Source: a virus (Duplodnaviria > Caudoviricetes). Taken from it: a DNA stretch of 35,506 nucleotides. Every line of letters starts with the position of its first letter. Positions within the stretch are counted from its first letter, which is position 1. Positions 14,885-22,467 of this stretch are shown piece by piece. Under the pieces are notes generated by a model that was given only the letters and a program-made list of their open reading frames with translations, had not been told where the DNA came from and searched no databases. The stretch lies in IMG/VR virus record IMGVR_UViG_3300042297_000090, positions 1-35,506 of that record, one strand, 5' to 3'. The position numbers and the translations under genes are program-made.

Positions 14885-15871
14885 ATGGCAAAGCTGCCGG
14901 AAACCATTATAGCCGATCAAAGTGCCGTTGCAAGCATGATAGATGCTCACCACGCTGCCAAGCGGGAACGGCCACGCCAGCACCTTGGCGCAAGCCTCTT
15001 GGGCCATCACTGTGATCGGTGGCTTTGGCTATCGTTTCGCTGGGCTGTCATTGAGCAATTCGAAGGCCGCATCTTGCGCCTGTTCCGCCGTGGCCACAAT
15101 GAAGAATCCACCATCATCGCTGATCTGGAAGCCATTGGGATTACCGTGCGTGGCCAGCAAAACCGCGTCGATTTTGGCGCGCATGTTAGCGGCAGCATTG
15201 ACGGGATTGGCATTGGCATTCCTGAAGCGCCCAAGACAGAGCATCTGCTTGAGTTTAAGACTCACGGAAAAAAGAGCTTTGACGATCTGGCGGCTAAAGG
15301 TGTGCGTCTGTCCAAATGGCAACACTTTGTTCAAATGCAGGTTTATTTAGCCGGGCTTGACTTGACGCGGGCGCTTTATGTGGCGGTTTGCAAGGATGAT
15401 GATCGGCTGCACTGCGAACGGGTGCGCTTTGATAAAGATGTTGCCGATGCTGCCATTGCCAAAGGACGGGCCATCGCATTGGCCGACAGGATACCCCCCC
15501 CTATTTCAACCGATCCGACATGGTATCAATGCGGCTGGTGTCCCGCAAAAGCGATGTGCCACAAATCACAGCCGACGAAGGAAGTGAATTGCCGCACATG
15601 CGCCCATGCCACTCCAAAAGAAGATAGCACCTGGCACTGCGCCCGGTGGGACATGCCTATTCCGCCAGAAGCTCAGTATGACGGATGTAATGACCACGTT
15701 TTTCACCCTGACCTTGTGCCGTGGCAGATGGAAGGTTCCGACGATGGCTTATCAGTGACTTGGCTGATTGGGAAAAGCCGCCTGCGAAATGGCGTTGGCG
15801 GGCTGACATCACGGCAGTTGCTGGATGAGACTGTGCAGGCGTTGGCGGGTAAGTTTGAGGTGGTGGCGTGA
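14885..15871 (+). CDS. Cas4-like PD-(D/E)xK exonuclease
   Basis: HLGAS.LGHHCDR.LW, GSIDG, LLEFKT, QMQVY, C-terminal CGWC..C and CRTC..C..C clusters. Confidence 0.85.
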   Translation: MAKLPETIIADQSAVASMIDAHHAAKRERPRQHLGASLLGHHCDRWLWLSFRWAVIEQFEGRILRLFRRGHNEESTIIADLEAIGITVRGQQNRVDFGAHVSGSIDGIGIGIPEAPKTEHLLEFKTHGKKSFDDLAAKGVRLSKWQHFVQMQVYLAGLDLTRALYVAVCKDDDRLHCERVRFDKDVADAAIAKGRAIALADRIPPPISTDPTWYQCGWCPAKAMCHKSQPTKEVNCRTCAHATPKEDSTWHCARWDMPIPPEAQYDGCNDHVFHPDLVPWQMEGSDDGLSVTWLIGKSRLRNGVGGLTSRQLLDETVQALAGKFEVVA

Positions 15872-17184
15872 AATACGGATCCGTTTGCAGCGGCATTGAA
15901 GCCGCAACCGCCGCATGGCACCCGCTTGGCTGGCAGCCAGCCTTCTTTAGTGAAATTGAGCCATTTCCACGCGCCGTGTTGGCCCATCACTATCCAACTG
16001 TGCCACTGCACGGCGACTTCACCAGTATAGGAGCAGATCAATATGGAGCAATTGACCTTCTTGTCGGAGGAACCCCCTGTCAGTCGTTCAGCGTCGCTGG
16101 CCTGCGAGGCGGACTGGATGACGACCGTGGCAACCTGGCCCTTGAGTTTCTTAGGCTTGCTGACCGAAAGCGGCCCAGATGGGTGGTTTGGGAGAACGTC
16201 CCCGGCGTCTTGTCAAGCAACGAAGGACGGGACTTTGGTTCCATACTCGGGGGCTTGGGCGAACTCGGGTATGGGTGGGCCTACCGAGTGCTTGACGCTC
16301 AGTTCTTTGGAGTGGCCCAGCGCCGCCGCCGTGTGTTCGTTGTCGGATACCTTGGAGACTGGCGACGTGCCGCAGCGGTTCTTTTTGAGCGCCACAGCCT
16401 GTCAGGGCATCCTGCGCCGCGCCGAGAAACGGGGCAAAGTGTTGCCAGAAGCATTAGAGCGCAGTCTCAAAGCAGTCACCGCGAGGACAGCGACAACTTT
16501 GTAGCTGAATGGCCCGCAGACATAGCGCCCACGCTCAACGCAGCGTTTGGCAGCAAGCAGGGGCTAGAGGATCAGCACAATGGGGGGGGGCTGGATTATT
16601 TGTCCCTGGCTCAGTGCCTGACGACCGGAACGGGCCAGCGATACGATGCCGAGACGGAGACGTTAATCCCTACGCACGGAGGCGGGTTCGATGTGATTGC
16701 CTTCAGTAAAGGCGATCATGGCGCCGACGCGGGCATGAATGTCTGCCCGACCATCCGCAAGGGTGGCGACGGTGGTGGGAACATGCCGGCGATCGCGTTT
16801 GAATGGCAGCGTGGTGCAACGCAAAATTTAGAAGTGACGGATAACTTTTCACCCGCGCTGATCAAGTCACAGACGCCGGCGGTTGCGTTTGACACTTATA
16901 ATCAATCAGTCAGCAATGTTGGGCAAACATTGCAGCGAGGCACGGGACAAGATCAAATTGGCGCAGTTTGGGTTAATTCCGCCGTCCGCCGCCTGACCCC
17001 TGTGGAGTGCGAACGGCTTCAGGGCTTCCCCGACAACTTCACCGCCATCCCGTATCGCAACAAGCCCGCTGATCAATGCCCTGATGGCCCGCGATACAAG
17101 GCGCTGGGCAACAGTATGGCGGTGCCGGTGATGCGCTGGATAGGCGAACGTATTGCAGCGGTGGAGGCGTTCAATGCTTCGTGA
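15868..17184 (+). CDS. DNA (cytosine-5) methyltransferase with a long variable region
   Basis: Motif I SVCSGIEA, IV GGTPCQSFSVAG, VI WENVPG, VIII AQRRRRVFVVG, IX RRLTPVECERLQGFP, X YKALGNSMAVPV. Confidence 0.95.
   Translation: MKYGSVCSGIEAATAAWHPLGWQPAFFSEIEPFPRAVLAHHYPTVPLHGDFTSIGADQYGAIDLLVGGTPCQSFSVAGLRGGLDDDRGNLALEFLRLADRKRPRWVVWENVPGVLSSNEGRDFGSILGGLGELGYGWAYRVLDAQFFGVAQRRRRVFVVGYLGDWRRAAAVLFERHSLSGHPAPRRETGQSVARSIRAQSQSSHREDSDNFVAEWPADIAPTLNAAFGSKQGLEDQHNGGGLDYLSLAQCLTTGTGQRYDAETETLIPTHGGGFDVIAFSKGDHGADAGMNVCPTIRKGGDGGGNMPAIAFEWQRGATQNLEVTDNFSPALIKSQTPAVAFDTYNQSVSNVGQTLQRGTGQDQIGAVWVNSAVRRLTPVECERLQGFPDNFTAIPYRNKPADQCPDGPRYKALGNSMAVPVMRWIGERIAAVEAFNAS
16043..16504 (+). CDS. Nested +1-frame protein inside the methyltransferase gene (M.EcoHK31I polypeptide beta-like)
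   Basis: 153-aa ORF with AGGAG (16029-16033) before its ATG; C-terminal CSLSDTLETGDVPQRFFLSATACQGILRRAEKRGKVLPEALERSL matches my recollection of the beta-subunit signature. Confidence 0.75.
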   Translation: MEQLTFLSEEPPVSRSASLACEADWMTTVATWPLSFLGLLTESGPDGWFGRTSPASCQATKDGTLVPYSGAWANSGMGGPTECLTLSSLEWPSAAAVCSLSDTLETGDVPQRFFLSATACQGILRRAEKRGKVLPEALERSLKAVTARTATTL

Positions 17185-21554: not shown

Positions 21555-21758
21555 TCAAATCTTCCGATGCCAGACAACGCCGCCCAGCCCGCCGACGAAC
21601 AGCGCGGTGATTAGCCATTGAACATTCTGGCTGGCCAGCGCCGCTGCATCAGCAGGCATGATTACCGGGATCACAAGCAGCGAGACAGCCAGCACGATTG
21701 CCAGCAAGCCGGCCCAAGTGGTTTTCTCGCGCAACCTAGCTTTGATATATTCGATCAT
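21555..21758 (-). CDS. Holin (2 TM)
   Basis: RLREKTTWAGL followed by two hydrophobic helices; between endolysin and spanins. Confidence 0.7.
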   Translation of the reverse strand: MIEYIKARLREKTTWAGLLAIVLAVSLLVIPVIMPADAAALASQNVQWLITALFVGGLGGVVWHRKI

Positions 21759-22255
21759 GCTTCACCTGTTGTGTTAGCGGCTGCGGTTGCTGCGATGCGC
21801 GCTGCCGGGCCAATGGGCTGCCCGGCTGGCCAGCGCAAAGCAATGAGCCTGTCTCGCGTAAACCGACGGACGTTGACGGCATCACCCTGATTGCCGCCCA
21901 AGATGTTTAGGCTGCTGCCATCAGCGTTGACGCTATTCACAAAGCCGACATGCCCGCCGCCCTGCCGATCAAACACGGCGATTGCGCCCATTGGTGGCGT
22001 GGCAGACAATGACAGCGGAATGCCCCAAGTCGCCCAAGCCTTGGCGCGGATGGCAATCTTGGGCGGTGCAATGCCAGCCTGATGAACGCACCAGGCGGCG
22101 AAAAGCCCGCACCACGGCACCGAATCCGCCCCGTATGCAATGCCCAGCACTCGCGCGCCAAGCCGGTTGCCCCATGACATGATCACCGGATTATTCCCAG
22201 CGCCGGGAAGTTCCCTTGTGCCAATTAATTGGCGCGCCTCTGTTAGCCATCGCAT
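21755..22255 (-). CDS. Endolysin, TIGR02594/CHAP-like cysteine peptidase
   Basis: W..EAR..IG.RE.PG..NNP.I, VPWCGLFAAW, GGHVGFV, ILGGNQGDAV, RWP. Start at 22255 after GGAGG. Confidence 0.88.
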   Translation of the reverse strand: MRWLTEARQLIGTRELPGAGNNPVIMSWGNRLGARVLGIAYGADSVPWCGLFAAWCVHQAGIAPPKIAIRAKAWATWGIPLSLSATPPMGAIAVFDRQGGGHVGFVNSVNADGSSLNILGGNQGDAVNVRRFTRDRLIALRWPAGQPIGPAARIAATAAANTTGEA

Positions 22256-22467
22256 TGCTCGACCTCCAAAGCTGCCAGCTTCAAAGCCCGCGCCATGACG
22301 GCGCGCGTTGCGCCTTGTAGCACATCGCTGCCAATTACGCCACGCAACCAGAACAATTCGCTTTTGGCGACATCCGCAAACTCGCGCGCCCACACCATCG
22401 CCACATCGTCGGCATAATCTGCAAACGTGTCAGCCTTAAGCATTTCCCAAGGAATACGCGCTTTCAC
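22243..22467 (-). CDS. Hypothetical protein (74 aa)
   Basis: GTGA-coupled to the upstream gene; overlaps the endolysin start. Confidence 0.55.
   Translation of the reverse strand: MKARIPWEMLKADTFADYADDVAMVWAREFADVAKSELFWLRGVIGSDVLQGATRAVMARALKLAALEVEQCDG

Follow-up and report, generated by a model that had tools for sequence, protein, structure and literature searches.

A conserved gene nested in the +1 frame of a phage C5 cytosine methyltransferase gene probably encodes a structural subunit that carries a displaced enzyme segment

The window, by which we mean the whole stretch of DNA analysed (35,506 nucleotides), is a 35.5-kb virus record that is rated complete and contains portal, capsid, terminase and tape-measure genes; a CHAP-domain protein encoded at 21755-22393 (-) is likely the endolysin. 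A rightward replication operon encodes an AAA protein, a DUF669 protein, a Cas4-like exonuclease, a C5 methyltransferase, a helicase and a VRR-NUC protein. The methyltransferase gene, here called alpha, contains a long open reading frame, beta, in its +1 frame, and the two have the following features.

15868..17184 (+): alpha, a C5 cytosine methyltransferase of 438 aa with motifs I-VIII, a long variable region, motif IX and motif X (PF00145, E 2.9e-53; phrog_116; alignment to M.HhaI)
16029..16033 (+): AGGAG, a ribosome-binding-site-like word 9 nt 5' of the beta ATG (read from the sequence)
16043..16504 (+): beta, a nested gene of 153 aa in the +1 frame relative to alpha, with an ATG start (ORF calling; phrog_16143, E 7.7e-10)
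16049..16063 (+): QLTFL at the beta N-terminus, a putative motif resembling the clamp-binding QL(S/D)LF (selected in the beta frame)
16256..16273 (+): beta 72-77 (WANSGM), common to EcoHK31I beta and predicted to pair with alpha 137-141 (complex model; alignment)
16334..16477 (+): the beta core, residues 98-145 (LSDTLE...FFLS...GILRRAEKRGK), a likely displaced post-motif-VIII segment (alignment, model, hhalign)
16501..16983 (+): the alpha variable region, about five short modules that are putative target-recognition modules (read by eye)
16987..17034 (+): alpha motif IX, RRLTPVECERLQGFPD (aligned to M.HhaI)
17095..17142 (+): alpha motif X, YKALGNSMAVPVMRWI (aligned to M.HhaI)

Alpha contains motifs I-X in order, the catalytic PC included, in keeping with its PF00145 membership; the PC of motif IV is at codons 70-71, the ENV of motif VI at 109-111, motif VIII at 151-155, motif IX at 374-389 and motif X at 410-425. 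The canonical motifs IX and X that the first-pass annotation of this DNA had ascribed to alpha are thus both in place. No restriction partner was found in the neighborhood of alpha, which lies between the Cas4-like exonuclease and the helicase, in a scan that took in part of the window's small ORFs, and the alpha product would, judging from its sequence, methylate cytosine C5 as an orphan enzyme of the phage replication operon. Across relatives, alpha varies in length from 285 to 956 aa. Some of its variable-region modules recur near-verbatim in different relatives (L008, L030, L022); multispecific phage methyltransferases are likewise built of target modules. A 112-codon reverse-strand ORF (15703-16041, -) that spans the exonuclease-methyltransferase junction is probably due to chance. 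None of the 24 RNA runs listed contains more than 0.07 of the words, and these runs give no evidence.

The beta ORF covers alpha codons 59-212, beginning just past motif III, running over motifs IV, VI and VIII, and stopping about 60 codons into the variable region. Beta matches no Pfam and no NCBIfam family. Its ATG is present in 35 of 41 non-redundant relatives and absent at that position in six, and an SD-like word lies 5' of beta in 27 of the 35 that have it (a raw count); P1-type and EcoHK31I genes have later beta starts. The alpha tyrosine codons that create the ATG are TAT in 34 of 40 instances, compared with 96 of 250 elsewhere in the 41 genes. Within the beta N-terminus, Q is kept in 36 of 41 relatives and F in 38 of 41, by means of codon choices that are silent or variable in alpha, and one site is CTT in 36 of 41, compared with 88 of 529 leucine codons elsewhere. 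These codon patterns indicate that the N-terminal peptide is under selection in the beta frame. The consensus of the clamp-binding pentapeptide is QL(S/D)LF (excerpts of PMC9690074), to which QLTFL is close, yet off consensus. A looser clamp-like pattern occurs in 25 of 73 close viral loci, 30 of 59 MM1-type loci, 11 of 75 genome loci, one of four Omega-type loci and none of 21 P1-type loci, with at most 0.4 expected by chance per group; the betas of P1-type genes and of EcoHK31I lack an N-terminal clamp-like peptide.

In this window by itself, the open frame is weak evidence, barely beyond chance (P = 0.032 for the lack of a stop by synonymous resampling, with 3.0 stops expected), and the case rests on the relatives. 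Of 320 parsed loci, 318 have no stop in the +1 frame between motif VI and a point 30 codons past motif VIII; ten more of the 330 given were dropped for an unparsable motif IV-VIII core, the two exceptions are contig ends, and the set holds near-identical or duplicate records and MM1-, P1- and Omega-type subsets seeded from records found via the nested ORF. Relatives for the selection tests were fetched with alpha as the query. In the stretch from motif VI to 45 codons past motif VIII, 66 viral relatives contain 0 stops in the +1 frame against 125.5 expected, and 72 genome loci contain one against 138.6, although these counts are not independent, and are inflated, because the relatives share ancestry. 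Controls without beta contain 23 stops against 31.8 expected (six Dcm-like enzymes) and 40 against 37.7 (seven plasmid enzymes), and the tails of the tested genes are rich in +1 stops (444 against 329 expected). The MM1 row of this test (89 against 409.7) is not clean, because the tested stretch extended beyond beta's own stop. Three genes initially classed as nested (L461, L462, L464) proved to have chance open frames; they were removed, and the comparisons of the beta core with one-chain enzymes, when repeated, gave the same result.

Substitution patterns in the 41 non-redundant genes point the same way. Divergence at four-fold sites is 0.65, 0.62 and 0.66 outside the overlap and falls to 0.43, 0.28, 0.21 and 0.17 inside it. 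These genes have a median DNA identity of 79% in the core and are close to saturation at synonymous sites outside it. Beyond motif VIII, conservation is highest in the +1 frame (72% identity), followed by alpha itself (63%) and the +2 frame (50%); over motifs IV-VIII, the +1 and +2 frames differ little in conservation (0.55-0.68 and 0.53-0.64). Homology of the beta protein spans Streptococcus, E. coli, P1-like and mycobacterial phages, and 6,754 clusters (50% identity) match the beta profile, a count that mixes nested and fused forms. The nested ORF is thus almost certainly a real gene. The first-pass annotation had described it as an ORF of 153 codons in the +1 frame with its own AGGAG and ATG over motifs IV-VIII, and had named suppressed synonymous variation and a conserved lack of +1 stops as the signs to look for; the relatives display both, in the drop of four-fold divergence from about 0.65 to 0.43-0.17 and in the empty stop count of the 66 viral genes.

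A nested beta has a precedent in M.EcoHK31I, an alpha/beta enzyme of E. coli with the target YGGCCR (excerpts of PMC2836561). With a primer from the supplement of that paper, we searched 5,426 complete E. coli genomes and located the EcoHK31I gene in 81 of them. Locus L374 encodes a 309-aa alpha, which adjoins a restriction gene, and a 176-aa nested beta (L374:3324-3854) that is unannotated in the RefSeq record. We take these chain lengths to be those of M.EcoHK31I. Like that of M.EcoHK31I, the phage beta is encoded wholly inside alpha in the +1 frame, and the kinship between the two betas that the first-pass annotation had suggested is borne out by 37% identity over 93 aa to EcoHK31I beta residues 11-102 (E 1e-14; hhalign 99%); the alphas are 42% identical over motifs I-VIII. 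In M.EcoHK31I, however, motif IX is carried on a C-terminal extension of beta of about 65 aa and is missing from alpha, whereas the phage alpha has its own; the phage beta ends before this stretch, and EcoHK31I beta lacks the first 45 or so residues of the phage beta. The EcoHK31I pair also sits beside a restriction gene, whereas the phage enzyme is an orphan in a replication operon. Because motif IX of EcoHK31I lies in the C-terminal stretch that is absent here, the part common to both betas is not motif IX.

That common part matters for function in the E. coli enzyme. According to excerpts of PMC2836561, EcoHK31I beta is a proven protein, functional as a separate gene; alpha is inactive alone once the internal beta starts are removed; N-terminal deletions of beta through the shared region weaken association; and activity falls markedly between deletions 65 and 70, which take out LSQVLE. 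The equivalent of LSQVLE in the phage beta is LSDTLE. A target module of EcoHK31I has 54% identity to one in a P1-like Dmt, a hint that M.EcoHK31I may descend from a phage-type gene.

The beta core looks like the segment that follows motif VIII in Dcm, and this resemblance was put to the test. Forty-five beta cores match the post-VIII segment of 15 Dcm-like enzymes, chosen by a downstream word independently of the beta score, at an hhalign probability of 96.4% (E 1.3e-9), with 0.5% for the next segment, 0.1% for the nested alphas in frame and 4.5% for the best of 100 column shuffles. A beta-core HMM scores at least 8 bits in frame in five of 92 one-chain enzymes (non-redundant genes without a nested frame, obtained by Pfam searches of four-phyla samples and plasmid records), in the adjacent segment of one of 92 and in none of 1,840 shuffles, and not one of 48 nested alphas reaches 3 bits in frame. 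A looser motif pattern, written after the sequences had been viewed, is found in 54 of 95 one-chain genes, 26 of 45 betas and one of 45 nested alphas. A first HMM of the beta C-terminus missed Dcm in frame (-3 to +3.4 bits), which was detected by profile-profile comparison only. Near the nested clade lie five one-chain genes (L378, L443, L447, L449, L477) that have neither a nested beta nor a beta match above 4.2 bits, and in L378 and L443 no obvious equivalent of the core is visible by eye.

The model of a database protein in which beta is joined to a TRD-IX-X half aligns weakly to many C5 enzymes, and places beta 94-98 onto M.HhaI 187-190, just after motif VIII; alignment Z is 3.2-3.6 for HhaI and up to 4.6 for others, with an unrelated helix match ranked first at 5.2. 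E. coli Dcm and other one-chain C5 enzymes (PF00145; PDB 3ME5/3LX6, M.HhaI) share motifs I-X with alpha, and their post-VIII segment matches the beta core. Dcm-like enzymes are single chains with the segment in frame and the +1 frame closed, whereas nested-type alphas lack the segment. The beta core is likely a displaced version of this segment. The first-pass annotation had reasoned that an alpha with its own motif IX should not need beta for the known reason; that beta is therefore dispensable is not supported by the shared core, which is not motif IX and matches a post-VIII segment that these alphas lack.

Other members of the family carry the core elsewhere. Two Bacteroidota-sample genes fall inside the nested clade of the tree with the +1 frame closed and the beta core in frame after motif X. 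The core has this position in all 120 best relatives of L482 (26.8-49.9 bits, from about beta profile position 90), as ranked by whole-length score, which favors tail-bearing proteins. All 25 parsed loci of this Bacteroidota family (26 fetched) have 4-9 stops in the +1 frame, and the fused core is recognized by hhalign at 96.9%; the N-terminal 90 residues of beta have no counterpart in the family. In a 55-row quick tree of motifs I-VIII, the fusion family is one group inside two SH-aLRT-100 branches of nested genes; the nested alphas are not one clade in it (3 changes), and MM1-type alphas group apart from the others. The Bacteroidota family, then, lost the nested gene but kept the core as a covalent part of the chain. 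Members of the fusion family include L482:1165-2523 (-), L476, L505-L529 and P0241-P0360; in L515, the gene upstream matches Pfam ICEA (E 1.4e-6) and possibly encodes a nuclease partner.

Among 120 longer beta homologues, 92 consist of beta joined to the TRD-IX-X half, and one cluster has 671 members (P0185), while most of these beta-plus-C-half proteins are singletons that may be frameshift errors. In a two-gene form (P0185, P0181, L040), beta continues into TRD-IX-X and alpha ends after motif VIII; three-part forms consist of a short alpha, its nested beta and a further ORF downstream with motifs IX-X (L003, L245-L248, L049, L058, L273, L316). The same core thus has four placements: behind motif VIII in the enzyme's own frame, in a nested gene, at the head of a C-terminal half, and as a fusion behind motif X.

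The predicted complex of alpha and beta has an ipSAE of 0.85 (0.86, 0.83, 0.85), compared with 0.00 for the best of three controls; the mark used for this score is reached by 116 of 157 solved complexes and two of 215 mismatched pairs. The runs share at least 60% of contacts, with a partner pLDDT of 68 or more. On the beta side, the confident contacts involve residues 21-120 and 138-148; on the alpha side, they involve 73-77, 112-154, 164-185, 370-384 and a few C-terminal residues. The predicted interface takes in motif IX (alpha 370-384). There is no confident contact with alpha 186-369, which is most of the variable region and is likely modelled poorly, so a role of beta in that region is still conceivable. 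The pass may stem from likeness to solved one-chain enzymes, the pair being two pieces of a known fold, and false covariation can arise because a single DNA underlies both alignments. Modelled alone, beta has a mean pLDDT of 60.6 and is confident only from about residue 100, with 86-95 in blocks 111-150. Foldseek against the PDB returned nothing at E <= 0.001 for this model or for that of the beta-plus-C-half protein, and the beta profile has no match among PDB sequences better than E 1.5.

We consider it probable that this conserved nested gene encodes a structural subunit which the enzyme requires and which supplies the displaced segment, and not a target-selecting regulator. Beta would be translated from its own ATG on the same mRNA as alpha. 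Residues 21-93 of beta are predicted to dock on the catalytic domain, near alpha 112-150 and 164-185; the core (residues 95-120, with L100, L104, L115 and S116 invariant) is predicted to replace the segment that normally follows motif VIII and to pack on motif IX. Alpha without beta would be unstable or inactive. The pair would act as an orphan enzyme, probably against restriction, and methylate the phage DNA as it replicates. Reading the core as a displaced segment would explain why beta persists although alpha has motif IX.

It is unlikely, in our judgment, that beta is made and binds alpha but serves as a dispensable regulator that tunes activity or picks target-recognition modules, which is close to the accessory, target-selecting scaffold of the first-pass annotation. 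Such a role would fit the full set of named motifs in alpha, its long, modular variable region, and the 90 N-terminal beta residues that the C-terminal fusion family does without. It would leave unexplained why alpha lacks the post-VIII segment that the beta core matches, why the core is held as a covalent tail once the frame is lost, and why the homologous region of EcoHK31I is needed for activity (excerpts of PMC2836561); beta is, moreover, the same across alphas of 285-956 residues. Of the earlier reading, then, the ORF, its homology and the motifs IX and X of alpha stand, and the dispensable, regulatory role is not supported.

More improbable still is a ribosomal frameshift near motif VIII as the main route into the +1 frame, which would yield not a free beta but an alpha(I-VIII)-beta-core fusion that complements full-length alpha. 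The most conserved part of beta does start at motif VIII, and a frameshift has been considered for genes 6/7 of mycobacteriophage Corndog (excerpts of PMC4351075), but selection begins about 90 codons earlier (as seen in the TAT that creates the ATG and in the Q and F kept in 36 and 38 of the 41 relatives), and EcoHK31I beta functions as a separate gene (excerpts of PMC2836561). It is very improbable that the open frame goes untranslated and results only from alpha conservation, codon bias or an RNA/DNA element: the marginal P of 0.032 for the window alone, the similar conservation of the +1 and +2 frames in motifs IV-VIII, and the three unrelated genes that had open frames by chance are outweighed by 0 stops against 125.5 expected, by protein-level homology from Streptococcus to E. 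coli, P1-like and mycobacterial phages, by the occurrence of the same peptide elsewhere in the gene, in frame 0, in the Bacteroidota family, and by the EcoHK31I homologue, a proven protein (excerpts of PMC2836561).

The nested beta of M.EcoHK31I and the annotation of Streptococcus phage MM1 are already known, and the phage copy would work like M.EcoHK31I, minus the motif-IX feature. MM1 orf13/orf14 (GenBank DQ113772) are annotated as C5 methyltransferase alpha and beta subunit and have the same layout, a nested +1 beta without motif IX in an alpha with IX and X; the betas are homologous (E 1e-8); identity is about 30%, and the MM1 beta is shorter at its C-terminus. Phage SpSL1 cds15 has this layout too, with beta unannotated; the DNA of this distant relative is C5-methylated at 102 of 113 sites, which the excerpts of PMC6755750 do not tie to beta. 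For Corndog genes 6/7, a split C5 methylase, excerpts of PMC4351075 note coding potential in an overlapping frame, and report that the gene 6/7 products were undetected by mass spectrometry in that study. Omega genes 127/128 are likewise a split phage C5 methylase, and Omega 127 contains a beta homologue; unlike here, motifs IX-X are in a separate gene in Corndog, compared by description only, and Omega. Our literature search, whose coverage of subscription and older work was poor, found no account of a widespread phage form or of a displaced segment, and the excerpts of PMC3483164, PMC8637289, PMC11855218, PMC3706429 and PMC4991695 added nothing on beta.

A wider proposal is conceivable, although we hold it to be doubtful: the cytosine methyltransferases of phages and prophages may include a very large class of hidden heterodimers, P1-like Dmt among them, in which the segment has moved to a nested +1 gene, freeing the alpha variable region to swap modules. 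In many lineages, a putative clamp-binding peptide at the N-terminus of beta could tether the enzyme to the host sliding clamp, resulting in methylation at the fork, a bacterial parallel to DNMT1-PCNA, and M.EcoHK31I would be a derived form in which motif IX slid into the beta frame. Apart from this proposal, the nested beta family turns M.EcoHK31I from a one-off curiosity into one example of a widespread architecture, and the four placements of the core illustrate well, in nature, how a segment of a protein can change both reading frame and position. Codon-optimizing or otherwise recoding such a gene would probably remove a subunit that had gone unnoticed and make the enzyme wrongly score as 'inactive'; models and annotations that treat these enzymes as single chains would be incomplete, and the P1-like dmt record, for example, lists no beta. 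In P1-like loci, the nested frame is open in 76 of 76 parsed. The dmt gene of P1-like phage SJ46 (L002:651-3074), with C5 and Dam-type domains, contains an unannotated nested beta of 165 aa, and unannotated nested betas are also present in 'dcm' genes of Listeria and Enterococcus plasmids (L376, L383, L384).
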